Of a DNA stretch of 64,000 nucleotides, positions 1,091 through 35,396 are shown piece by piece (position 1 is the stretch's first letter; the number at the start of each line of letters is the position of its first letter). Position numbers and translations under genes: made by a program. The notes beneath the pieces are model-generated. The model worked only from the letters and a program-made list of their open reading frames with translations, did no database searches and was not told where the DNA came from. The DNA is from Paludibacteraceae bacterium (GTDB lineage: Bacteria > Bacteroidota > Bacteroidia > Bacteroidales > Paludibacteraceae), in assembly GCA_017467185.1 (NCBI GenBank), contig JAFTSS010000085.1, positions 1 through 64,000 on the forward strand. Reading direction: 5' to 3'.

Positions 1091-2446
1091 ATGATTGAAC
1101 GTAAATTTGAAAAGTATTTACAGCTTTTTTTGGAAGAAAAATCAGATAAAGTTATGCTATTGAATGGCGCACGACAAATAGGTAAATCGTTTATTATTCG
1201 TCATGTGGGTAGTAGGCTTTTTTCTCATTTCGTTGAAATTGATTTACGTGCTGATAAAGAGGGTGAAATGATATTTGCCAATGTGCGTAGCATTGAAGAC
1301 TTTTACTTGCAATTGGGTATTCGATATGGTGATAATTTGGGTGATTGGTCGAATACATTAGTTTTTTTAGATGAAATACAAGTATATCCACATCTCCTTA
1401 CAATGTTGAAGTTTTTGAATCAAGATAGGCGTTATCGTTATATTGCTAGCGGCTCTCAATTAGGGATAGCTCTAGCAAAAACTACGTCTGTGCCATTGGG
1501 GAGTATTGAGATTCAGCAGATGTATCCTATAGATTTTGAAGAGTTTTTAGGTGCGATGGGAGTCGGGAAGGATGCAATACAAGCGATGAGGCAAAGTTTT
1601 TTGGAGCGTCAATCCTTGTCACAAGAGACACATGATTATATTATGAAGTTGTTTCGCTATTATTTGCTTGTAGGGGGATTGCCTGATGCTGTAAATAAGT
1701 TTGTAGAGAGTAGAAATATGGTTGTTGTACGTACGATTCAGCGTGACGTGCACGAGCTTTATGGTATAGATGCGTCGCAATATGATGCTGAAAATAGTTT
1801 GAAAATCCGTAGGATATATGACCTTGTGCCGTCTAATTTAGAGAATAAAAAGAAAAGAGTTAGGGTCAAGGATATTGAAAATAAAAAAGGAAAACAATTT
1901 TCTGATTATGCTGATGAGTTTGAATATTTGATGCATTCAGGCATTAGTTTGGGAGTTTCGGCAATTAGTAATCCTCGTTTTCCATTGATAGAATCTTCAG
2001 TGAAGGATTTGTTGAAATTATATCTTAACGATGTAGGTATATTGACACATATATTATATGGTTTAAATGTGAATGCTATTCTTAATGATGAAAAAAGTAT
2101 CAATTTAGGAACGGTTTATGAGTCCGTTGTTGCGCAGGAATTGCATGCACATGGGTTTAGTAAGTTGTATTATTATGATAATAAACAGCGTGGAGAAGTC
2201 GATTTTTTAATTGACGATTATAATCGATTATCAGTGGTTCCAATAGAGGTTAAATCAGGCAAAGATTATACAATACATAGTGCATTATCTCATTTTATTT
2301 CAAATTCGGAGTATAATATTTGTGAGGGTGTGGTTTTTTCCAATGTGCGAGAGATAAGTCGAAAAGGAAAAATAATTTATCTGCCAATATATTATGTTAT
2401 GTTTATTGATAATCAGCAGAATATAGAAGAATTGATTTTAGAATAA
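1091..2446 (+). CDS. AAA+ superfamily ATPase with C-terminal DUF4143-type domain
   Basis: 451 aa with a Walker A-like NGARQIGKS. Length and architecture are typical of the AAA14/DUF4143 ATPases common in Bacteroidales accessory DNA. Confidence 0.75.
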   Translation: MIERKFEKYLQLFLEEKSDKVMLLNGARQIGKSFIIRHVGSRLFSHFVEIDLRADKEGEMIFANVRSIEDFYLQLGIRYGDNLGDWSNTLVFLDEIQVYPHLLTMLKFLNQDRRYRYIASGSQLGIALAKTTSVPLGSIEIQQMYPIDFEEFLGAMGVGKDAIQAMRQSFLERQSLSQETHDYIMKLFRYYLLVGGLPDAVNKFVESRNMVVVRTIQRDVHELYGIDASQYDAENSLKIRRIYDLVPSNLENKKKRVRVKDIENKKGKQFSDYADEFEYLMHSGISLGVSAISNPRFPLIESSVKDLLKLYLNDVGILTHILYGLNVNAILNDEKSINLGTVYESVVAQELHAHGFSKLYYYDNKQRGEVDFLIDDYNRLSVVPIEVKSGKDYTIHSALSHFISNSEYNICEGVVFSNVREISRKGKIIYLPIYYVMFIDNQQNIEELILE

Positions 2447-3211
2447 GAGTTTTTTGATATATGTGAGTTTTTTTGTTTGTTTGTCAAAAATTCTTGATTT
2501 TACGTTTTGGAGATTTGGAAGAGAAGGTCGGTGTCGAGGCTTTTGCGCTCGAAGATGTTATATACGTTGGGGCGTTCGCAACTGATTTTGCGGGCGAGTC
2601 ATGAGGGGGTGCGTTCTTGGGCTTCAAGTTCTTGCTTGATGAGTTTGTCTATATGTACCATAAAAAAACGTGGAGCTTTTGTTACTTGTCTCCACAGTTA
2701 AAGGCTCTCGCATTGCCCATCTAAGTCAGAGATCAAGCAATACAGAAGCCCACGTAGATATGAATATACTAACAAACGCTTTGTATGAATTGTCACACAA
2801 AGTATTTGACCGAAATATACACACCACGGAGACATCTATCTTGCTCAGTATTTTAACCTAGATTATGAATTTGCGAGATTCTTAACTGTTAAAGACTAAG
2901 GTCGTATAAACGTCCTATGTATGTTTTATAATGTATGTTTTAGTTTGTGTTTGGACTTAGATTTTTGGCATACCCCTCCGCCCTTTGGGCATCTCCCCTT
3001 ACTAAGGGGAGGAATATGAGGCATACTTTTGCGTCCCTACACTATGTAAAGGTACGTATTATTTTTTATTTGGCAAAAAAATATGATAAAAAAATAAGGC
3101 TAACCTTGTGGGGTTAGCCTTATTTGGGATATGCTATTAAATAATTTTTAGATATTAGTAGCGAGTAGCGAGATGTGAGACAACTCGCTTTGCTCGTTTC
3201 CTTATTTTTAA

Positions 3212-4297
3212 TTATTTGTTAGCAGCTTCGAATTCTTGCATGCAAGCTACGAGAGCTTTAACTGATTCAACTGGACATGCGTTGTAGATAGAAGCACGGA
3301 AGCCACCTACTGAACGGTGACCTTTGATACCTACCATACCGCGTTCTTTAGCGAATTCCATGAATGCTTTTTCTTTGTCTTCGTGACCTGGAGCCATTAC
3401 GAAGCAAACGTTCATGATTGAACGGTCTTCTTTAGCAGCAGTACCTACGAACATAGAGTTGCGGTCGATTTCGTTGTAAAGGAGGTCAGCTTTTTCAACG
3501 TTGATTTTGTTCATTGCTTCGAGACCACCGATTTTTTTCACCCATTTCAATGTTTCGTACATAACATAGATAGGGAATACAGGAGGAGTGTTGAACATAG
3601 AGATGTTGCGGTCTTCGTCAGCAGCATGAGTTTTGTAGTTAACCATTGTTTGAAGAGGACGATAGTTCTTTTCAAGAAGGTCGCGACGGATGATAACGAA
3701 AGTAACACCAGCAGGGCCTACGTTCTTTTGAGCACCACCGTAGATCATTGCGTATTTAGTAACGTCAACTGGACGGCTCATGATGTCTGATGACATATCT
3801 GCTACCAAGTCGATTGGGCAGTCCATATCGTAACGGATTTCAGTACCGTAGATAGTGTTGTTAGTTGTGATATGGAAATAGTCAGCATCTGTAGGGATTA
3901 CATAATCTTTAGGGATGTAAGAGTAAGTTTTGTCTTCAGATGAAGCAACAACTTCTACTTCGCCATAGAATTTAGCTTCTTTAGCAGCTTTTTTAGCCCA
4001 AACACCTGTTTGAAGATAAGCAGCTTTTTTGTTCAAAAGGTTAGCAGGTACGTGGAAGAATTGAGTTGAAGCACCACCACCGAGGAACAATACTTCGTAG
4101 TTGTCAGGAATATTCAAAAGATCGCGCCAGAGTTGACGAGTTTCAGCCATAACGCGTTCCCAACCTGGAGTACGGTGAGAAATTTCAAGAATACCGATAC
4201 CTGTGTTGTCAAAGTTACGGATTGCTTCGATAGCAGCTTCTACTGCTTCGCGTGGAAGTACGCAAGGACCTGCGTTGAAATTGTGCATTTGTTTCAT
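3212..4297 (-). CDS. serC: 3-phosphoserine aminotransferase
   Basis: 361 aa. The N-terminus [10 protein letters not shown] and overall similarity match the SerC class-V aminotransferase family. Confidence 0.9.
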
Positions 4298-4478
4298 AGT
4301 AAATTTTTTAATATGTTAAAAAACAGTTAGTTGTTGTTTTTGTGCGTAAAGTATAGTTTACGAGACAAAGGTAAGCATTAAATTGCTTATAAGCAAATTT
4401 TTGAGGAGGAATTTTTCAAAAATGTTTGTTTTTGTGTTTTGGGTAGTTTTTTTAGATATAATAACAGTTTTTTCTTTT

Positions 4479-4725
4479 AGACATAATGACATAAAGACAT
4501 AATTTTTTTTCTGCATACGCCTTGCTACATCTACGATGTATCTTGGCGGAAGAATGACAGACCTATCGGTATTAAAATCTGTCATTCTTTGGTTGAGATG
4601 AAACTTTGGTTTCAGCAAAGCTTATGTTAAGAGTGATAAATTTTGTCATTATGTCATTTTGTCTCAAAATTAATCTGTTTGAAATTAATTTTGAGTGAGT
4701 TTGCTACTATTTATAAGCTCTATTT
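4479..4725 (+). mobile_element. MITE-like element family A, copy 1 (terminal inverted repeats AGACATAATGACA / TGTCATTATGTCAT)
   Basis: Near-identical to copy 2 and similar to copy 3. It has an internal perfect hairpin aagaatgacaga...tctgtcattctt. Confidence 0.7.
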
Positions 4726-4730
4726 CTTTT

Positions 4731-4975
4731 AGACATAATGACATAAAGACATAATTTTTTTTTCTGCATACGCCTTGCTACATCTACGATGTATCTTGGC
4801 GGAAGAATGACAGACCTATCGGTATTAAAATCTGTCATTCTTTGGCTGAGATGAAACTTTGGTTTCAGCAAAGCTTGTGTTAAGAGTGATAAATTTTGTC
4901 ATTATGTCATTTTGTCTTAAAATTAATCTGTTTGAAATTAATTTTGAGTGAGTTTGCTACTATTTAACGTGAGTT
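4731..4975 (+). mobile_element. MITE-like element family A, copy 2 (tandem with copy 1)
   Basis: About 97% identical to 4479-4725. Confidence 0.7.
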
Positions 4976-5368
4976 CGATATAACTTTATAGCACACGGAA
5001 AACACGGATGACACAGAATTTGATTATTTATCTCCCACAGATTTTTTAACAAGATTATTGCTGTGCTCGGCAATTAGAGTAAACTCTATTGCTCTCGCTT
5101 ATCGCAATAATTCACAGATTTCTCAGATATTTTTCTTTCTTTACTATTCGATTTTTATCAAGATTTTGTTTATATTCAGCATAACCCAAATAAATTTGGC
5201 TTCTGCTCTCACTTATCACAAAATTCGCTCTTTTGCTACGCAAAAATAACTTCGTTGAAATTGCTTTCGTTCGGCAACTGAAGTAAACTTCGTTGCTCTC
5301 ACTTATTCGCAATTTTCGCTCTACTGATAACACGGATGCCATACGGCGTTTTATATCGAACGGACGTT
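4966..5368 (+). mobile_element. MITE-like element family B, copy 1 (18-bp TIR AACGTGAGTTCGATATAA / TTATATCGAACGGACGTT), enlarged by an internal duplication
   Basis: Its TIRs are shared with the copies at 14209 and 46690. The flanking hexamer TATTTA is duplicated. The right TIR supplies the last codons and stop of ispG. Confidence 0.65.
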
Positions 5369-6076
5369 ATTTATAAGCTCTAAAAGTTTTTCGATTGCTT
5401 CTTCTTCGGGGATGTTTTTCATTACGCATTCTTTGCCTTTGTAGAGTGAGACTTTACCCATTCCGGCTCCGATGTAGCCAAAGTCGGCATCTGCCATTTC
5501 GCCTGGTCCGTTGACGATACAGCCCATGACGGCGATTTTGAGGCCTACGAAACCTTGTGTGGCTTCTTTGACTTGACGGACTACACGTGGTAGGTCAAAT
5601 TTTGTACGCCCGCAAGATGGACATGAGGTGTATTCGGTTTTGCTGATGCGACAGCGTGATGATTGTAGGATTTCGAATGCTATGTCGTTGACTTGTTCGG
5701 CTGTGATGAATTCAGATTTGTTTGTGAGCCAAATGCCATCGATTAGGCCGTCGATTAGGTATGGTCCGAAGAAAGCTGCTGCGTGTATTTGAAGTGTTTC
5801 TAAATCGTCGAGTTCGAAGTGTTTTTTTAGGATTATTGGTTTGTCTGTTTTGAGTAATTCGTTGAAATTTGATAAATCTTCAACAATTGCAATATTTCCT
5901 TCTAAAGTCATAATCTCATCTGCAGTATAATCAGGTTTTAGTAGGGTGTTAAGTTGTTCGTTTGCTATTACAACTACGGGATTATTACCACCTATTTTGT
6001 CTATTGCAATGCTTTTGCGACGAGAATATTCAGTCTTTAATTTTGTGTTATCAATTTTGCATTTTGCATTTTGCAT
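5351..6076 (-). CDS. ispG: 4-hydroxy-3-methylbut-2-enyl diphosphate synthase, C-terminal segment (insert domain plus 4Fe-4S domain)
   Basis: 241 aa carrying the conserved C-terminal CPSCGRT...KIAVMGCIVNGPGE motif region of IspG/GcpE. It begins with its own ATG inside the heptamer tract. Confidence 0.8.
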   Translation of the reverse strand: MQNAKCKIDNTKLKTEYSRRKSIAIDKIGGNNPVVVIANEQLNTLLKPDYTADEIMTLEGNIAIVEDLSNFNELLKTDKPIILKKHFELDDLETLQIHAAAFFGPYLIDGLIDGIWLTNKSEFITAEQVNDIAFEILQSSRCRISKTEYTSCPSCGRTKFDLPRVVRQVKEATQGFVGLKIAVMGCIVNGPGEMADADFGYIGAGMGKVSLYKGKECVMKNIPEEEAIEKLLELINNVRSI

Positions 6077-6909
6077 TCTACATAGTCAACAAGTTTGCGA
6101 GCTACGGGGATTTCGGCTTCAGGGGCTTCGGATAGGGATACGCGGATTGTGTCGCCAATGCCGTCGTGGAGGAGAGTGCCGATGCCGACTGCTGATTTTA
6201 TGCGTCCTTCGTCGTCGCTGCCAGCTTCGGTTACGCCGAGATGAAGTGGATAGTTTTTGCCTTTGGCGTCCATCATTTGTACTAATAGGCGTACTGCGTA
6301 AATCATTACGCGTGTGTTAGAGGCTTTGACAGAGAGGATTAGGTTGGTAAAGCCTTCTTGCTCGCAGAGTTCGATGAACTCCATACATGAAGTGGCAAGT
6401 CCGAGAGGTGTGTTGCCGTAACGGCTCATGATGCGAGGAGAGAGTGAACCGTGGTTGACGCCGATGCGAATGGCTGTGCCTTTGTCTTTGCAGATAGAGA
6501 GCAGTGTGTGTAGTTTTTCGCGGATACGGCGTAGTTCGTCGTTCCATTCTTCATCGGTGTAGTCGCCATGCTTGCCAGTGACGAAGTTGCCGGGATTGAT
6601 GCGCACTTTTTCAACTAATTGTGCAGCGACCTCAGCTACGTTGGCGTTGAAGTGGATGTCGGCAACGAGGGGTAGGTCGATGCCTTCGGTGCGTAACGCT
6701 TCTTTTATTTTGCCGAGATTTTCGGCTTCTTTTGTGCCTTGTGTGGTGTAGCGGAGTAGTTCTGTGCCAGCTTCGAGACAGTGTTTTGCTTGAGCCACAG
6801 AGGCCTCGATATCGTTAGTGTCGGTGTTGGCCATTGTTTGTATGCGGATAGGGTTGTTGCCACCGATGCGCAAGTTGCCAACTTGAATTTCTTTTGTTTG
6901 TCGTCTCAT
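6037..6909 (-). CDS. ispG: 4-hydroxy-3-methylbut-2-enyl diphosphate synthase, N-terminal TIM-barrel segment (frame-separated from the C-terminal segment)
   Basis: 290 aa with N-terminus MRRQTKEIQVGNLRIGGNNPIRIQTMANTDT, typical of IspG. It ends 40 nt inside the next ORF in a different frame. Confidence 0.8.
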   Translation of the reverse strand: MRRQTKEIQVGNLRIGGNNPIRIQTMANTDTNDIEASVAQAKHCLEAGTELLRYTTQGTKEAENLGKIKEALRTEGIDLPLVADIHFNANVAEVAAQLVEKVRINPGNFVTGKHGDYTDEEWNDELRRIREKLHTLLSICKDKGTAIRIGVNHGSLSPRIMSRYGNTPLGLATSCMEFIELCEQEGFTNLILSVKASNTRVMIYAVRLLVQMMDAKGKNYPLHLGVTEAGSDDEGRIKSAVGIGTLLHDGIGDTIRVSLSEAPEAEIPVARKLVDYVECKMQNAKLITQN

Positions 6910-6959
6910 AATATTTAACTATATGGAAATTTTAACAGAAGTACAAATCTCTTATTTTT

Positions 6960-7190
6960 AGACATAATGACAGAAGAACATATTTTTTTTGTTTATATAT
7001 ACCTCGCTACATCAACGATGTATCTCGGTAAAACAATGACAAACCTACCGGTATCAAAATATGTCATTTTTTTGCCGAGATGAAACTTTAGGTTCAGCAA
7101 GGCATTTGCATATGAGTGATAAATTTTGTCATTATGTCATTCTGTCTGAAAAAATCATTCTGTTTAAAAGAATGAAAATTAAATCTGTAC
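6960..7190 (+). mobile_element. MITE-like element family A, copy 3
   Basis: Same TIRs (agacataatgaca ... tgtcattatgtcattctgtct), about 80% identical to copies 1 and 2. Confidence 0.6.
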
Positions 7191-7213
7191 TTATGTTAAA
7201 AAAGCAATAACTT

Positions 7214-9253
7214 TCAACTAATCTTCAATGGATTGTAGATGTCGTTATCTGTTCCGTCAGATGCAGTTTGTTGTGGGTATATCAATAAGAAGTTGTTGTC
7301 TGCAAAATATTTGTTGAGATAGTAAGGTATTTTTTCGAATAGGTTGTTGTATGATACAGTGGCTTTGCGGGCAGTGATTACGATTAGCGTGTCGCTGTGT
7401 TTTATCTCTTTTGAGATGATAAGGAAATCTTCCCATGACGCTAATTCGCGGAATGATACGTTGAGTGAACTATGTATTTCGCATTGTTTTTTTAGAGCCT
7501 CTGTGGTTGTTTTGTTGGCATAGAATACTATAGGTATGCTGAGTTGCGATGCTATATTTTTGACGCGATCGAACCAAAGGTCGAAACCTATCTCTAATTC
7601 AGCCATTTGTGGTACGGTTACGACTAATCGTTTAACTGAGTTTATAGGTCTTTTAGGACCATAAATTATAAGGTTTTGGTGTGATGTTCCGTTGATTAGG
7701 GCGGTGATTGTTCCTCCTAAGAAAGTATCGACGATGTTGGCTTTGTGGTGAATACCAACGATGAGGTCGGTTATTTTGTTGGCTTGTACGGTGTCGATGA
7801 TACAATTTGATATGTTCAAATCGCATTTCATGATTTGTACTAATTTGTTGTCGGTTGCTGAAGCCAATTTAGCTGCACTTTCTAAGAGTTTTGCGCCAGA
7901 TGTATCTTCTGGGTCGTTGTTGATTTTTAGAGCATAAAGGGTTTTGTTGTTGCGTTGTTTTATGAGGTTGCTTATGTCGAGCAACTGAGGCATGGTTTGA
8001 GGGTTTGATATAGGGATGAGAATGCGCTCGGTGCCAAGGCGTTGACGTTGTTCGTCTTGTTGAGTCTCTTCGATTGCGATTTTGCGGGCAGCGTGTTCGG
8101 TTGCAATTGACGAGATTGTACAGGTTACGAGAATCATTACGATTGTGCCATTGAGCACGTTTTCGTCGAGAAGTCCGATGTTGTAGCCAATCATTACTGC
8201 TGCAAGGGTAGCTGCTGCTTGTCCGTTGCTGAGACCGAAAATTAAGTCGCCTTCTACGCTACTGAGTTTTGATGTTACTTGCGATAATTTTGCTGCCATC
8301 CATTTGGTTACGGTTGCAACGATTGTCATTACCGCAGCGACTTTTACAGATTCAATGCTTGTTATAAAGGCACGTAGGTCGATTTGCATACCAATGCTGA
8401 GAAGGAAGAACGGTATAAATATGGCGTTGCCTACAAATTCGATGCGATTCATGAGTGGCGAAACGCTTGGAATCAATCGGTTGAGTATCAATCCGGCAAA
8501 GAATGCGCCAAGGATACCCTCGAGACCTGCGGCTTGGGCTAATAGCGAAGCGAAGAAGATTATAACCATTACAAAGATGTATTGCGCAACGCTGTCGTTG
8601 AATCGGCGGAGGAAATATTTTGATAGTTTGGGTAGTAGCCAAAATACTATTATGCTGAATATTAAGGTAGATACTCCGAACTTAATCCAATAGGCGCTAT
8701 TCATTTCGCCTTTTGTTGTGGCTACGATAACGGCAAGGATGAGCAAAGAGGCTGTAACTGTGATGATTGTACCTGCAATGGTGATACTTACAGCTCGGTT
8801 TTTTGATATACCCATTTTGCTGACAATAGGGTAGGCTATCAGTGTGTGAGAGGCATACATACTGGCTAACAGAGTGGCGCGTGTGAAGTCCATGTCTAAT
8901 AGCCACATGCCAGTGATGATACCGAAAACCATTGGTAGTATGAATGTATATATGCCGAATAGAATGCTCTTTGTGCTGTTTTGTTTGAAGGTGTTGAGGT
9001 CGATTTCCAAGCCAGCTTGGAACATTATGTATAGAATGCCGACTTTGCCAAATAGTTCGAAGCTGGCATCGTTTGATAGAATGTTAAGTCCGTGAGGGCC
9101 AAAGAGAGTACCTGCTAAAATCAATCCGATTATATGTGGAATTTTGAATCGATTTAGGATAGGTGCGCACAAGATTATCACGATAACCAAAAGAAATATG
9201 GCAATCGGGTCAGTTAAAGGAAACGTTGGTATTAAATCTTCGATATATTTCAT
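7214..9253 (-). CDS. monovalent cation:proton antiporter (CPA/Na+-H+ exchanger family) with C-terminal cytoplasmic domain
   Basis: 679 aa. It has 10-12 predicted TM helices at the N-terminus and a soluble C-terminal half, as in the NhaP/Kef-type exchanger family. Confidence 0.75.
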   Translation of the reverse strand: MKYIEDLIPTFPLTDPIAIFLLVIVIILCAPILNRFKIPHIIGLILAGTLFGPHGLNILSNDASFELFGKVGILYIMFQAGLEIDLNTFKQNSTKSILFGIYTFILPMVFGIITGMWLLDMDFTRATLLASMYASHTLIAYPIVSKMGISKNRAVSITIAGTIITVTASLLILAVIVATTKGEMNSAYWIKFGVSTLIFSIIVFWLLPKLSKYFLRRFNDSVAQYIFVMVIIFFASLLAQAAGLEGILGAFFAGLILNRLIPSVSPLMNRIEFVGNAIFIPFFLLSIGMQIDLRAFITSIESVKVAAVMTIVATVTKWMAAKLSQVTSKLSSVEGDLIFGLSNGQAAATLAAVMIGYNIGLLDENVLNGTIVMILVTCTISSIATEHAARKIAIEETQQDEQRQRLGTERILIPISNPQTMPQLLDISNLIKQRNNKTLYALKINNDPEDTSGAKLLESAAKLASATDNKLVQIMKCDLNISNCIIDTVQANKITDLIVGIHHKANIVDTFLGGTITALINGTSHQNLIIYGPKRPINSVKRLVVTVPQMAELEIGFDLWFDRVKNIASQLSIPIVFYANKTTTEALKKQCEIHSSLNVSFRELASWEDFLIISKEIKHSDTLIVITARKATVSYNNLFEKIPYYLNKYFADNNFLLIYPQQTASDGTDNDIYNPLKIS

Positions 9254-9256
9254 TTG

Positions 9257-9365
9257 GAGTGAGGAATTAGGAATTAGGAATTAGGAATGAGGAATTCGGA
9301 GTTAGGAATTGAATTTCTCAATTCTCAACTTTCAACTTTCAATTTTCAAATTTCAATTTTTTGTA
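9257..9365 (+). repeat. heptamer microsatellites (AGGAATT)n then (TCAACTT/TCAATTT)n immediately 5' of the antiporter start codon
   Basis: Direct inspection. Confidence 0.8.
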
Positions 9366-9726
9366 CGTTTCTGCAAAGTTAGTCATTTTTTTTTAATTGA
9401 GCAATAGTGCAAAACTTATGCCTGTGGCGGATTTTTATTAGTTTTGTTAAAAAATCTTGTGTTGTTTTATTGGATTTGTTAATAAATTACTGTGTTTTTG
9501 TTAAATTACGACTATTATTTGTAAAATATTTAGCATTTAGTGTTAAATTAACGTTAAATTTTAATTTTACGCTTGCTATTTTGTTAAAAAGTTGTACCTT
9601 TGCAGTGTCAAAACGAATTAACTTAGTTTTGGAGGTTTTTTTATAGATTATAGATTATAGATAATGTGGACAGAAGTTTTGCGTGAGCAAGGCTTCTGTT
9701 TTTTTTGTAAGGATATGGCAAAAAAA

Positions 9727-9754
9727 GTAGAGACGCAAAATTTTGCGTCTCCAC
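9727..9754. repeat. palindromic element gtagagacgcaaaattttgcgtctccac (family GAGACGCAA-N-TTGCGTCTC)
   Basis: Near-perfect inverted repeat in an intergenic region. Confidence 0.7.
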
Positions 9755-9854
9755 TAAAATTTTTTTCATAAAATTAGGGGGAGTGGTCGAAGACCGATGG
9801 GGTTAATACTTGTTATCTGTAATCTGTACTCTATTATCTGTTATTTGTATTATA

Positions 9855-11717
9855 TCAAAGTACTATCTTTTCCACCTCATCACCAACAGCAATCACATAC
9901 ACCCCACGTGGCAATGATAATTGAGCATCACGACCAGTATAAATTAATCGACCATTTACATCAAAGAGTTGATAATCTGCCGACAAACCATCCACATATA
10001 GCACACCGCCCACTGAATATATTGCAATATTTGCATTTTCGGTATTTTCGATTGAAGTATCTTCATCACTTTCTACTACATTGATAAATTCGCCCCAATA
10101 TTCATCATTTGCGTATGCCTCACGAGCTCCTTCTGGCACAATCACAGGGATATTTCTGTTCACATCGAAGAATGTTTTTGCAAAAATAGTTGGAGGCTCG
10201 ATAGCATTCACATTGATTTGTTTCATACGACTACAGAGTGCAAAACAGTTGTCGCCAATGCGTTGTGTAGTCGATGGCAAAGCGAGCGAATCGAGATAAG
10301 TACAACCATAGAATGCCGCATCACCCACTTCGGTTACACCCTCTGGAATTACAAGATTTTCCAACGCATGGCAGTTGTAGAATGCCCAGTTACCGATGCG
10401 TTGCAATGCCACATCGCCATCGGCTGCAGCACGTTTCATGCGCGATGCGAACGATTTAGCCTCAGCTTGACCACCAAATGTGATAGATTTGATAGAACGA
10501 CAATTCTCGAATGCTGCATCATTGATTTCTACCACCGAAGCAGGAATATTTATCTCTTTCAACTGATAGCACTCTGCCATAGCCTTAAATCCAATAGTTT
10601 CGAGATTGCCAGGCAACATCAAGTTCTCCAATTTATAGCAGTCGTAGAATGCCAAGTCGTTGATTGCAGTGTTTGTAGTACCAGCGAGGTCGATAGTATG
10701 AAGCGATTTTTTCGAGCGATTAATATAGTTAAAACCATTCTCATCCAACTCTCCATCAGTGATATGCACCTCAGTCAATTTATTAGAAAATTGGGTTTGA
10801 AATTCTTCCTTAATCGAATTAACCAATTTAGCAGGGCCTTGGAAATAACGAAGGTTTTTAGTTGCGTTAAGAGGATGCCATGTTTCGTCACTAGATTCAT
10901 AAAAATCAAGTTCTACATCATCCCCAAATTCACAAATCAAAGTATCAAGAGAAGAAACCATAGGAATCCATTCATCGCTTTCTTCATCATAAATATTATA
11001 ACAATAAAAAATGCTTTCACCAATATATTTAACTCCACTACCAATTTTTGCATACCTTAATTGCGCACAATCCCTAAAGACTCGTCCTCCAATACAAACT
11101 ACACTATTAGGAATTTCTATTGATGTAAGTCCAGAACATCCCCTAAATGCACTTTCTCCAATAAAAGTTACGCGATTGGGAATTGTGATTGATGTGAGAG
11201 CAGAATAATTATAAAATACATAATCCTTAATAGAGTCAACATCTTCTGGTACAACTACATCTGTTACTTTTTTATTATTTAAATATAAATTTTCTGCATA
11301 GTGTAGGGGGTTAGCAGTACTACAATTCTTAAATTCAATATCAAACCATGCGCCTACATCAAATATATATACATCAACAAGTGAATAACAAGCCAAAAAA
11401 GCATCTCCACCAATAGTTGTTACACTATTTGGGATTGTGATTGAAGTGAGAGATGAACATCTAGAAAATGCAAAATCCCCAATCTCAGTCACACTATATT
11501 CTACACCATTATAGGTTACTTTTTCAGGAATAACAATTTCTGATTGAATATATCCCGCACCATTATCATCCCATAAATACCCCCCATCATTCGTAACAGT
11601 AGCCGTCTTATTCTCATGGTCGAAATCGTAATAGATACCATCGATTTCGGCTTCATAGGCGAATGCCATTGTTGCACTACACAACAATGCAATCAATAAA
11701 AAGTAAATTTTCTTCAT
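9855..11717 (-). CDS. BspA-type leucine-rich-repeat surface protein with T9SS C-terminal sorting domain
   Basis: 620 aa with a signal peptide and repeated IPNSVTxIGxxAFxxCxxL modules (LRR_5/BspA type). The C-terminal approximately 80 aa resemble a Por secretion tail. Confidence 0.7.
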   Translation of the reverse strand: MKKIYFLLIALLCSATMAFAYEAEIDGIYYDFDHENKTATVTNDGGYLWDDNGAGYIQSEIVIPEKVTYNGVEYSVTEIGDFAFSRCSSLTSITIPNSVTTIGGDAFLACYSLVDVYIFDVGAWFDIEFKNCSTANPLHYAENLYLNNKKVTDVVVPEDVDSIKDYVFYNYSALTSITIPNRVTFIGESAFRGCSGLTSIEIPNSVVCIGGRVFRDCAQLRYAKIGSGVKYIGESIFYCYNIYDEESDEWIPMVSSLDTLICEFGDDVELDFYESSDETWHPLNATKNLRYFQGPAKLVNSIKEEFQTQFSNKLTEVHITDGELDENGFNYINRSKKSLHTIDLAGTTNTAINDLAFYDCYKLENLMLPGNLETIGFKAMAECYQLKEINIPASVVEINDAAFENCRSIKSITFGGQAEAKSFASRMKRAAADGDVALQRIGNWAFYNCHALENLVIPEGVTEVGDAAFYGCTYLDSLALPSTTQRIGDNCFALCSRMKQINVNAIEPPTIFAKTFFDVNRNIPVIVPEGAREAYANDEYWGEFINVVESDEDTSIENTENANIAIYSVGGVLYVDGLSADYQLFDVNGRLIYTGRDAQLSLPRGVYVIAVGDEVEKIVL

Positions 11718-12090
11718 AATAATTAAAGTTTTAGTGATTAATATAATTCGTTTTATAAAATAGAGACTATAGGTGAAATAGTAACTATAGGAGCAATAGA
11801 GACTATAGAAACTATAGTAGAGGGGAGATTAAACAGGCGTTAATTTAATATTAGGTGTATCAGGTGGTTATTAAAAATGTACAAATAAAGTGGATGACGG
11901 TTTTTTTCGGCAGAGGTTGTTTGCACCTTCGATAAGGGTAGGTTGTGGATTTAGTTGTACATTTTGACACAAAAAAAACGTGGAATTCGACTGTTGTCGT
12001 TCCACGAACTGAGGCTGTCGCATTGCCTTGAAGTCGGAACAGACAACGCGAAGCCCACGCTGAAATGTATGTATATTTATACCCCTACAG

Positions 12091-12112
12091 GAGACGCAAT
12101 ATATTGCGTCTC
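12091..12112. repeat. palindromic element gagacgcaatatattgcgtctc
   Basis: Perfect 10-bp arms. Confidence 0.7.
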
Positions 12113-12312
12113 TACAGGTATGTACAACATTCCCGTAGGACATCTAACGTTGCAATGCTCTTGACTTCATTAGAAACTGCGACATTTCAGTTCGTCAGAA
12201 CAAAGCGTCGATAAACGCCTATTTATTATTTATATCTTGCGATTCCCACCCGATTGCCCAATCAGCGTGAGTTTCACACCGCAAAGGTAGAAATTATTTT
12301 TGAAATATCCAA

Positions 12313-13251
12313 TTATTCCGAAATAATTTTTACGTTTTCGGCTATTATTGTTTTGTATTTTTCTTTTATTTCGTTTGGTAAGAACGATAGGTCTATCATT
12401 TCATACCATGCAGGAATAGTTTTATTGAATTTTTTGAATATATTGGCAATAGTTTTTTCTTCTAAACCTGAATTTTGCATTGCTATTTCGAAGTCTATTT
12501 TTTTTATCTTCCGTTTTTTGCTATTCAGATTCAATGCCAATTCTTCAGTGTCTTCTGGTAAAACTAATTGTGTTGATAAAAGGTTGTAAGCAGGAGATAA
12601 TATATGTCCGTATCCGATTGGTTTATATAGTGAAAAGTTCTTTAAATGCATATCGGAATTTCCAACTAACCACGAGAATAGAACTATTTCCCAAAATTTG
12701 ATGATGTCTAATTTTGGTACAGATGAATATTTGGCAATTAGTTTCGCTATTTGTTCGTATGACCCTTTATATTTATGCTCTGTTAATCTTTCTGATAATT
12801 GACACATATCTTCCATTGCAAGTTTGTATCCATTGTTTAATCTATCAATGCGACGAGTCAAATAGCAAAGGCGACCATCGGCAATTGGTATCAATGTATG
12901 AGGTACAACGTCAATACCAGATATTTCAGCCAAATGCATAGTTAAATCTTCGATTTCTGGTAGATTGGCATAAATGTCGGTTTGAGGTTTTAATATGTAT
13001 CGTCCCCATAAACCAACAATAGTGAATCTTTTTTCTTTGCTCTCTGTAGTGATATCTAACGAAAGTTTAGCTTGAACCCCAGTTAGTGTGGTTTGACTGC
13101 GAATGACTTCTTCTGCCAATTTGTTTAAATCAGCATGATGAAAATTGGCAATTGGGCACGTTGTATCGTTGAATATTTTTTTTGAACATGTGCGATGAAA
13201 CCCAATTTCGCCATTTTTTAATTCTTTGTAACAATAAAAACATTTAGCCAT
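12313..13251 (-). CDS. HipA-like serine/threonine kinase toxin (HipT-like: kinase core without the HipA N-terminal subdomain, with N-terminal CxxC...HxxC zinc ribbon)
   Basis: 312 aa. It carries the catalytic-loop motif VGNSDMHLKNFSL typical of the HipA family and an N-terminus CFYCYKEL...HRTC. Confidence 0.75.
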   Translation of the reverse strand: MAKCFYCYKELKNGEIGFHRTCSKKIFNDTTCPIANFHHADLNKLAEEVIRSQTTLTGVQAKLSLDITTESKEKRFTIVGLWGRYILKPQTDIYANLPEIEDLTMHLAEISGIDVVPHTLIPIADGRLCYLTRRIDRLNNGYKLAMEDMCQLSERLTEHKYKGSYEQIAKLIAKYSSVPKLDIIKFWEIVLFSWLVGNSDMHLKNFSLYKPIGYGHILSPAYNLLSTQLVLPEDTEELALNLNSKKRKIKKIDFEIAMQNSGLEEKTIANIFKKFNKTIPAWYEMIDLSFLPNEIKEKYKTIIAENVKIISE

Positions 13252-13255
13252 ATCT

Positions 13256-13582
13256 CTATTCTTCTTCTTTTATTTCAATGACACTAATAGCTCCTATGCA
13301 ATCACGGCAACAAGCTAATAATAGCGACATGCGGTCGCGATTGTTTATTTTCCAATTGCGCTCTGCTATATCAAGTAGCCAGCCTTCAGGTATTAAACCA
13401 TCAAAAAATGGGAATAACACTTTGTCGTGGTATGTTTCTTCTTGCAGTGGTAGTGTCAAACTAATTGGTTCGGCATCTGGTTGTACTAGATATTCTTTCT
13501 TGTACTGAAAAGAATAACCATTGTCTGTTTCTCGTAAAATGCCAACTTGTCTGTCTCGTAGATATATATATGCTTGTTTCAT
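13256..13582 (-). CDS. HipA N-terminal-domain protein (HipS-like third component)
   Basis: 108 aa. A 5-nt gap separates it from the kinase gene, and its start overlaps the hipB-like stop. Its length and position match HipS of the HipBST systems. Confidence 0.65.
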   Translation of the reverse strand: MKQAYIYLRDRQVGILRETDNGYSFQYKKEYLVQPDAEPISLTLPLQEETYHDKVLFPFFDGLIPEGWLLDIAERNWKINNRDRMSLLLACCRDCIGAISVIEIKEEE

Positions 13583-13785
13583 TATTTATCTCTATCTTGT
13601 TTGATTGGACCAACTTCGTAACCAAATAGATTTAATACTTGGTTCAATTTGTCAAGACGTAAAGTCTCTTTACCTTGTTCTAAATCACGAATAAAACGTA
13701 ATCCAACTCCTGATTTTTCGGATAAGTCAATTTGTGTTAGGTGATATTGCTTGCGCATTGTTTTTATAAATTCTGCAATTGTCAT
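13582..13785 (-). CDS. XRE-family helix-turn-helix antitoxin (HipB-like)
   Basis: 67 aa containing the HTH LTQIDLSEKSGVGLRFIRDLEQGK. Confidence 0.75.
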   Translation of the reverse strand: MTIAEFIKTMRKQYHLTQIDLSEKSGVGLRFIRDLEQGKETLRLDKLNQVLNLFGYEVGPIKQDRDK

Positions 13786-35313: not shown

Positions 35314-35386
35314 GAGCCACATTGGGGACTCGAACCCCAGACCTACTCATTACGAATGAGTTGCTCTACCAACTGAGCTAATGTGG
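35314..35386 (-). tRNA. tRNA-Thr (anticodon CGT)
   Basis: 73 nt. The cloverleaf folds manually (acceptor GCCACAT/ATGTGGC, D-arm GCTC-AGTTGGTA-GAGC, anticodon loop TTCGTAA, T-arm TGGGG-TTCGAGT-CCCCA). No CCA is encoded. Confidence 0.85.
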
Positions 35387-35396
35387 CAAGGTTATT

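Follow-up and report, generated by a model that had tools for sequence, protein, structure and literature searches.

Among described regulatory RNAs, the closest in kind to the element reported here are T-box leaders and the c-di-GMP-I (GEMM) riboswitch, the latter of which precedes diverse genes. These RNAs are promoter-proximal and structured, are conserved across paralogous loci and families, and carry a hairpin with a U-run just before the gene, the 5′ half of this terminator being contested by mutually exclusive, covarying helices. We analyzed a stretch of 64,000 nucleotides (nt) from a Paludibacteraceae bacterium (contig JAFTSS010000085.1, positions 1 to 64,000; hereafter the window), in which two paralogous intergenic segments, at positions 2656-2775 and 11968-12085, had originally been predicted to represent a small RNA (sRNA) or a repeat family of ~110 nt. 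As judged from the sequence, these segments form the 3′ ends of a transcription unit that is complete in itself and occurs twice on the minus strand of the window. This unit would begin with a promoter of the sigma-ABfr type and a short 5′ region of variable sequence, continue as a structured RNA of ~260 nt, and close with a hairpin and U-run resembling an intrinsic terminator; a gene on the same strand comes next. In our judgment it is moderately probable that the RNA acts as a conditional terminator, namely an attenuator or riboswitch-like cis-acting leader gating accessory, often surface-protein, genes. It shares with T-box and GEMM-type leaders all the features named above, and differs from them in that it has no Rfam model, is larger than most aptamers, appears to use four exchangeable strands instead of one shared strand, and precedes genes without a common pathway. 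We class it as new within the known kind of structured cis-regulatory leader RNAs, and as a member of no named family.

Two further groups of RNAs invite comparison. FopS and GibS of Bacteroides thetaiotaomicron are multicopy sRNAs with sigma-ABfr promoters and Rho-independent terminators, and FopS RNAs are 65-70 nt long, consist of a single-stranded 5′ seed (R1′) followed by the terminator, and have been deposited in Rfam (PMC11697453). Another six-member sRNA family of B. thetaiotaomicron (BTnc020 and others) adjoins transposases or invertases (PMC11697453). The present RNA is likewise a multicopy RNA of Bacteroidales with a canonical sigma-ABfr promoter and a Rho-independent terminator; identity with FopS or GibS was rejected on the grounds of its length (~260-390 nt), its almost complete pairing, the lack of an Rfam match and the close, co-oriented gene. 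ROOL, GOLLD, OLE and raiA (Rfam; PMC12286853) are, like the present RNA, large, covarying multi-helix RNAs that comparative genomics brought to light, chiefly in uncultured gut or rumen bacteria, and have no assigned biochemical function. Unlike them, the present RNA is smaller, matches none of them in sequence or structure, has a layout of promoter, terminator and gene that suggests cis regulation, occurs almost only in Bacteroidales among the genome matches listed, and is present in several dispersed copies per genome.

The similarity between the two segments had been described as three blocks in a fixed order, and we found all three in both segments at the following places:

~2663-2675 and 11973-11985: block AAAAAAACGTGGA
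2708-2717 and 12018-12027: block TCGCATTGCC
2745-2754 and 12050-12059: block GAAGCCCACG

When aligned, the two segments were identical at ~76% of columns. Single 10-mer blocks were not enriched in the window (3 matches compared with 2.97 expected, one mismatch allowed), and the significance of the similarity must therefore rest on the whole element. A hidden Markov model (HMM) of 56 family members from other genomes, from which the window sequences were excluded, matched only two sites in the 64 kilobases (kb), 12228-11973 (E = 2.7e-35) and 2918-2663 (E = 7.2e-24); both matches were 256 nt long, near the full length of the model, and lay on the minus strand. The similarity of the segments is thus far above random expectation in a model that had not seen them. 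With a covariance model whose seed included both window copies, the copy that ends in segment 11968-12085 (copy A) scored 157 bits and the one that ends in segment 2656-2775 (copy B) 136.8 bits, each over the full model length.

Further homologs, on whose existence the original prediction had been made to depend, were retrieved from at least 243 loci by a pattern of two conserved blocks, with at least 120 loci in a scan of one genome per species and at least 120 in a scan of metagenome contigs; 3 viral contigs were also matched. Among the matches listed, the genome labels were almost all Bacteroidales (Muribaculaceae, Paludibacteraceae, Prevotellaceae, Bacteroidaceae, Barnesiella and Salinivirgaceae), the few bins with other labels being probably mis-binned, and the human gut was among the sources of the metagenome matches. 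The closest listed relative of the window was a metagenome-assembled genome of Candidatus Aphodosoma (L085). The copies are dispersed, with several per genome, and all 243 retrieved loci held one copy each, without arrays. A small protein-coding gene was ruled out as an explanation, since no frame was kept in the RNA (each frame was free of stop codons in at most 2 of 58 sequences) and its lengths fell into all three classes modulo 3.

The extent and the strand of the element had to be revised. In an all-against-all comparison of flanks, more than 90% of loci were similar 60-200 nt upstream of the 110-nt part and fewer than 10% beyond ~320 nt, and the similarity downstream of that part was short and partial. 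The two segments are real, but at ~110 nt they are merely the 3′ third of a larger unit: in the window, homology continues ~150 nt farther on the plus strand, to ~2926 and ~12231, and the promoter lies beyond. As read on the plus strand, which the original prediction had used, each segment shows an A-run and then a hairpin, which in minus-strand reading become a hairpin and then a U-run; the functional strand is accordingly the minus strand.

The sequence TAnnTTTG is the –7 box of Bacteroidetes. An exact TAnnTTTG was present on the sense strand of 163 out of 170 loci, with a sharp peak 100-120 nt upstream of a UCUCGCA block in the RNA, and its counts on the antisense strand were at background only. 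At the opposite end of the unit, a G+C-containing hairpin passes immediately into a U-run in both window copies (GUGGAA...UUCCACG followed by U8 in copy A, GUGGAG...CUCCACG followed by U7 in copy B), as in intrinsic terminators. The loop of this hairpin is long in the window copies (15-19 nt), and a simple consensus terminator scan called neither of the two. The 5′ half of the terminator overlaps the 3′ strand of a helix designated AT.

From 5′ to 3′, family members are composed of the promoter, a variable 5′ stretch, the P1 hairpin, a left half, P4, a right half, and the terminator with its U-run. The left half contains, in this order, strand (b), the P2 5′ strand, the invariant UCUCGCA (P3 5′ strand), the P5 5′ strand and strand (e). 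P4 is a long hairpin with a variable tip and with CGUGGGCUUC in its 3′ strand. The right half contains the AT 5′ strand, the P5 3′ strand, GGCAAUGCGAGAGCC (which holds the P3 3′ strand) and the P2 3′ strand. The parts of the two window copies, all on the minus strand, are as follows.

Copy A, minus strand:
12282-12289: promoter –7 box TACCTTTG, directly after the hipA-like stop codon
11972-12231: conserved body of the RNA, beginning with the P1 hairpin and ending with the U-run, with segment 11968-12085 as its 3′ part
12203-12220: P1 hairpin AGGCGUUUAUCGACGCUU
12195-12202: strand (b) UGUUCUGA, pairing with (e) as helix P6 or with the terminator 5′ half as P2ext
12187-12194: P2 5′ strand CGAACUGA, pairing with UCAGUUCG at 12005-12012
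12178-12184: P3 5′ strand UGUCGCA, pairing with UGCGACA inside 12013-12027
12163-12169: P5 5′ strand UGAAGUC, pairing with GACUUCA at 12029-12035
12154-12162: strand (e) AAGAGCAUU, the partner of (b) in P6 or of the AT 5′ strand in P5ext
12044-12153: P4 long hairpin, with its 5′ strand at 12127-12153 and its 3′ strand, including the conserved CGUGGGCUUC, at 12044-12068
12084-12118: variable tip of P4, a perfect long hairpin CCUGUAGAGACGCAAUAUAUUGCGUCUCCUGUAGG
12036-12047: AT 5′ strand GUUGUCUGUUCC, pairing with (U)GGAACGACAAC at 11993-12004
12013-12027: conserved block GGCAAUGCGACAGCC, which holds the P3 3′ strand
11971-12004: terminator module, with the 5′ half UGGAAC at 11999-12004, the 3′ half UUCCACG at 11979-11985 and U8 at 11971-11978

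Copy B, minus strand:
3047-3077: promoter-like TTTG (3074-3077), a spacer of 19 nt and TACCTTTA (3047-3054), with one mismatch to TAnnTTTG
2973-3012: variable 5′ region, which contains G+C-rich hairpins and exceeds that of most family members in length
2662-2926: conserved RNA body, containing segment 2656-2775 as its 3′ part
2900-2915: P1
2888-2895: strand (b)
2882-2888 with 2695-2702: P2
2872-2878 with UGCGAGA in 2703-2717: P3
2854-2863 with 2719-2728: P5
2824-2846 with 2736-2757: P4
2729-2740 with 2681-2694: AT
2669-2676: terminator 3′ half
2662-2668: U7

P2ext is present in the minimum-free-energy fold of copy A. The P4 tip differs entirely in sequence and length among family members.

We compared the duplex energies of cognate and non-cognate strand pairs from 96-97 representatives (less than 88% identical), a procedure that needs no alignment. 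The following values were obtained; the p-values given here and below are descriptive and uncorrected for kinship, and the controls with slid partners and crossed strands argue against an artefact.

P2: cognate –10.5, non-cognate –2.8 kcal/mol (p = 8e-48)
P5: cognate –11.0, non-cognate –4.0 kcal/mol (p = 8e-47)
AT: cognate –18.3, non-cognate –13.8 kcal/mol (p = 1e-24)
Terminator: cognate –9.4, non-cognate –7.0 kcal/mol (p = 1.5e-12)
P6: cognate –11.0, non-cognate –7.7 kcal/mol (p = 4e-15)

Cross-controls between unrelated strands gave no significance in this comparison. For P3, UCUCGCA/UGCGAGA was found in 84 sequences and the G/C-swapped UGUCGCA/UGCGACA in 6, with compensation in 6 out of 6; copy A carries this rare variant, compensated on both sides. 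In an alignment of 56 sequences (MAFFT), 91% of cells of the rod fold were paired, whereas shuffling of columns gave 80% and sliding of partners 33-47%, and 38 out of 58 pairs were changed on both sides, over 381 cells. Compensatory pairs were found in P2 (7/8), P5 (10/10), the terminator (5/5), P1 (3/4) and AT (7/10), and 81-95% of P4 cells were paired, many of them as G·U. RNAalifold, which was given no structure, arrived at the same rod and showed compensatory changes in 27 of its 42 pairs. The 'compensatory stem' that had been pointed out within the 110-nt segments is the AT helix, which is real; it is, however, one of several covarying helices, most of which join the 110-nt part to the part upstream.

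Counts of G·U and A·C were 273 and 78 in the rod helices, 56 and 7 in AT, and 68 and 3 in a long-range closing helix. Such an excess of G·U is to be expected only under selection on the RNA made from this strand, the minus strand in the window. Loop and internal-loop sequences were also conserved more than pairing demands. For a local hairpin GAAAU[UCUCGCAA]AUUUC and a reading of P3 as a kissing loop, a few compensatory variants were seen, but the signal was weak. The proposal that the segments belong to a family of structured RNAs, marked by conserved blocks and by stems with compensatory changes, is supported by at least 243 loci, by strong covariation and by a strand-specific excess of G·U.

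The covarying strands fall into two sets of pairings. Equilibrium folding of 87 members yielded a long rod, P2-P3-P5-P4, of approximately –100 kcal/mol, in which (b) lengthens P2 by way of the terminator 5′ half and (e) lengthens P5 by way of the AT 5′ strand. The terminator hairpin appeared in only ~11% of the sequences in this fold, and P6 and AT, which were absent from it, nonetheless covaried strongly (p = 1e-13 and 1e-17, respectively). The exchange pairings of (b) with the AT 3′ strand and of (e) with the AT 5′ strand also covaried (p = 8e-4 each), unlike the cross controls, and both were part of the RNAalifold prediction with compensatory changes. In staged folding, P6 formed with ~8 base pairs (bp) in the nascent RNA, when only the 5′ half was present, and was displaced at equilibrium by the rod once the 3′ half was added. 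In the late rod, (b) held the terminator 5′ half with 5.6-5.9 bp, and the terminator kept 1-2 bp. Linked from (b) to P2, from P2 to the AT 3′ strand, from the AT 5′ strand to P5 and from P5 to (e), the strands are connected in the manner of a four-way junction. The terminator 5′ half is a pairing partner in AT as well as in P2ext, and both of these helices covary. On the predicted pairings, this is the logic of an attenuator, in which two mutually exclusive and conserved sets of helices compete for the terminator 5′ half.

We accordingly propose a mechanism in conditional terms. In the nascent transcript, (b) and (e) would pair as P6, and the terminator 5′ half would be free to pair with its 3′ half, with a stop at the U-run. 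The long rod P2ext-P2-P3-P5-P5ext-P4 is predicted to be thermodynamically favored; in it, (b) would take the terminator 5′ half, and transcription would read through into the downstream gene. The AT helix would be a second way of occupying the terminator 5′ half. P6 with the terminator, or P6 with AT, would thus alternate with the rod through four mutually complementary strands, namely (b), (e), AT 5′ and AT 3′, and some signal (a ligand, a protein, temperature or transcription kinetics) would bias the choice of fold.

The genes that surround the RNA bear on whether it acts in cis. In 184 loci with enough downstream sequence, we looked for a long open reading frame (ORF) spanning positions +150 to +550: 117 loci had one solely on the strand of the RNA, and 5 had one solely on the opposite strand. 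Upstream ORFs, in contrast, were on the same strand in 48 cases and on the opposite strand in 44; the upstream genes were ordinary housekeeping genes (for example, pgk, recA and chorismate synthase), with integrases in 3 of 92. Downstream start codons mostly lay 30-80 nt past the U-run, a spacing that leaves no room for a separate promoter. The downstream proteins were very diverse and mostly without a Pfam domain; the largest class was that of BspA-type leucine-rich repeat (LRR) proteins (LRR_5; 12/99), followed by LytTR (2) and by single cases of a C5 methylase, DUF4007, PAPS reductase, a C10 peptidase, a fimbrillin-like protein, SPFH, an ion channel, GT2 and CHASE2. In many loci a second conserved hairpin with the loop GGGA(A/G)UC or ACGAGGGGAUGAC is located 15-60 nt past the U-run, before the start codon (for example, L003 9010-9032, L006 ~4575-4597, L105 and L106); it is absent from both window copies. 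Its loop (GGGAAUCU) is often complementary to the terminator 3′ half (AGAUUCCC). This complementarity was weak overall (p = 0.014), and the contingency count was suggestive, in that AUUCC terminators occurred with GGAAU 15 times and with GGAGU 6 times, and ACUCC terminators with GGAGU 5 times and with GGAAU once. Co-orientation, short spacers and the second hairpin together favor co-transcription and control in cis.

In the window, the gene context was as previously described and comprises the following features:

1091-2446, plus strand: AAA_14/DUF4143 gene
2500-2661, minus strand: small Xre-like helix-turn-helix (HTH) frame downstream of copy B, its ATG abutting the U-run
9855-11717, minus strand: BspA-type LRR gene of 620 amino acids, the next gene after copy A (LRR_5, E = 7.5e-72)
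12313-13785, minus strand: hipBST-like cassette of three genes (HTH_3, Couple_hipA and HipA_C)

Only 23 nt separate the end of the hipBST-like cassette from the –7 box of copy A, so that the RNA unit starts right after the stop codon of the toxin gene. An HTH gene of the same type as that after copy B is also found downstream of the RNA in L085 and in a Paraprevotella relative (L097). The frame in the window has a TGA at 2599-2601, where both relatives have Trp; it stops earlier than its homolog in L085 and is probably a pseudogene.

Several observations weigh against a gated leader, above all for the copies in the window. A position 5′ of a gene on the same strand, with no promoter between, was found family-wide and is weaker for the window copies, and control in cis is less clear in this genome than in the family at large. 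The U-run of copy A is separated from the start of the BspA-type gene by 253 nt, although no exact TAnnTTTG is contained in this spacer, and copy B precedes the degenerate HTH frame. The same spacer also holds, at 11772-11817, four unexplained CTATAG palindromes in the context nCTATAGTnnC, spaced by 9, 18 and 18 nt, which could be a binding array for a regulator. The downstream genes have no common function or pathway that would point to a signal. With respect to the folds, AT, when lengthened by the long-range closing pairing CGUGGG/CCCACG, likewise reaches the U-run and could act as a terminator in its own right, which makes the on/off assignment uncertain, and P6, P2, AT and P5 might coexist in one compact four-way-junction fold. 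Finally, the retrieval patterns fixed CGTGGGCTT, GGCAATGCGA and AGCC, and the sample thus gives no measure of the conservation of these blocks.

Two viral contigs (IMG/VR) differ from the remainder of the family. In L001 (913-3260) and L003 (6665-9030), a tyrosine integrase is located ~1 kb from the 3′ 110 nt of the RNA alone; the partial copies run from CGUGGGCUUC through the terminator, and the sequence upstream is unrelated. A full-length 5′ domain was not found with a Muribaculaceae-type pattern in the viral contigs next to them. These cases hint that the 3′ end of the RNA gene is used as an attachment site by the two elements, as are tRNA and tmRNA genes by prophages and genomic islands, which likewise carry the 3′ end of the RNA gene that they target. 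The present case differs from those sites in that it concerns only 2 of 123 genome and viral loci, in that no attL/attR pair was observed, and in that the RNA is neither a tRNA nor a tmRNA.

A serious rival to the leader, which we nevertheless regard as rather unlikely, is a free-standing noncoding RNA with its 3′ end at the U-run, active in trans or through protein binding (rod-like, 6S-like or sponge-type), with the next gene as a mere neighbor or as a target of leaky read-through. An RNA of this kind would be expected to have its own promoter and terminator-like 3′ end, loops and internal loops conserved beyond the needs of pairing, and dispersed copies, several per genome, all of which we observed. 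The complementarity of AGAUUCCC to GGGAAUCU could be that of an sRNA with its target, the two integrase-bearing contigs carry the 3′ part as integrative elements carry the ends of tRNA or tmRNA genes, and neither window copy is tightly coupled to an intact downstream gene. With 6S RNA in particular, the present RNA shares a rod-like, largely double-stranded form with internal loops and, as in some bacteria, paralogous copies; it differs in the absence of an Rfam 6S match, in its several dispersed copies, in its coupling to downstream genes and in its conserved alternative folds, and no central bubble resembling an open promoter was identified in it. A free-standing RNA does not account for the co-orientation of downstream genes (117 versus 5) next to the random orientation of upstream genes, nor for spacers too short for a separate promoter, and the covarying anti-terminator helices would be needless for a plain sRNA terminator. 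The sRNA of ~110 nt that had been proposed finds no support in that form: the unit measures ~300-390 nt from promoter to U-run, lies on the opposite strand, and by its gene co-orientation and close spacing favors a cis-acting leader. An sRNA product from the unit is possible, and the roles of leader and sRNA are not mutually exclusive.

The other alternative in the original prediction, a repeat family or recombination site, would make the unit an element that functions as DNA, its inverted repeats being used in recombination or transposition (an invertible segment, a miniature inverted-repeat transposable element (MITE) or repetitive extragenic palindrome (REP), or an integron-attC-like site). 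The unit is indeed largely palindromic, with arms of ~35 nt (P2-P3-P5) that flank a hairpin-forming segment of 150 nt, and it is multi-copy, intergenic and placed before surface-protein genes, as are the invertible promoters of Bacteroides. However, we consider a DNA-level element very improbable as its primary nature, because G·U is 3.5 to more than 20 times as frequent as A·C in the helices, the promoter is sense-specific and outside the repeats, each locus has one copy without arrays, the upstream genes are housekeeping genes, and phage and plasmid collections yielded no blastn match to copy A. A Bacteroides inverton was rejected specifically, since the flipped arrangement had 0 matches in metagenome contigs (at least 120 for the normal one) and the promoter is upstream of both repeat arms; MITE, REP and attC repeats were rejected on the G·U and A·C counts of the rod helices, the single copy at each of 243 loci and the housekeeping genes upstream. 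The template and variable repeats of diversity-generating retroelements, retron msr/msd and the omega or bridge RNAs of transposon nucleases were likewise rejected: the copies differ by insertions, deletions and substitutions in pairs, and genes for a reverse transcriptase or a nuclease are absent from the neighborhood. Chance similarity, or the resemblance of merely two intrinsic terminators, would explain why no single 10-mer is enriched in the window, and the hairpin with its U-run does make up part of the similarity; given that a profile from other genomes finds exactly these two sites, and that at least 243 homologous loci exist, we regard its probability as negligible.

We further asked whether the leader RNA has already been described. 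An Rfam covariance search, which had been suggested as a check, assigned the element to no family: none of the 4227 models of Rfam 15 reached its gathering threshold on either copy. Scans of both copies at permissive E-values returned only sub-threshold microRNA noise, and a scan of 18 diverse family loci (144 kb) returned one tRNA elsewhere and nothing on the element. Literature searches, the coverage of which was incomplete, retrieved only unrelated primers with sequence strings and no description with keywords, and the motif was not in the first 200 of the 408 supplementary files of a human-microbiome structured-RNA catalogue (PMC8040213). It is plausible, if short of probable, that the RNA represents a previously undescribed large class of regulatory RNA, confined to Bacteroidales by the genome matches listed. 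Such a class would be an orphan riboswitch-like leader that operates by a Holliday-junction-like exchange of four strands (P6 and AT versus P2ext and P5ext), and would place many unrelated accessory and surface genes, BspA-type LRR genes foremost, under one signal in gut and rumen.

Two observations on the window concern other genes. The only Rfam family in a scan of the whole window was tRNA, with one gene at 35315-35387 on the minus strand (70.8 bits with the Rfam tRNA model). The GcpE/IspG gene at 5351-6909, minus strand, is split into overlapping ORFs (6037-6909 and 5351-6076) that each match part of the Pfam model, which indicates a frameshift by sequencing error or gene decay.

If the leader RNA functions as proposed, one elaborate RNA switch would be present in many gut Bacteroidales, in several copies placed ahead of accessory genes. 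Many of these genes are for surface proteins, among them fimbrillin-like proteins, C10 proteases and BspA-like LRR proteins. Such surface proteins shape interactions with host and phage. For RNA biology, the family would be a large covarying class outside Rfam, and, with both alternative folds visible in covariation, a good subject for structural and mechanistic work. The carriers include cultured organisms, namely Duncaniella muris DSM 103720, Phocaeicola sartorii DSM 21941, Muribaculum caecicola, Lepagella muris and Prevotella sp. P5-50, in which the proposal is directly testable. The finding would then point to a hidden regulon that answers one cue in an abundant group of human and animal gut bacteria.

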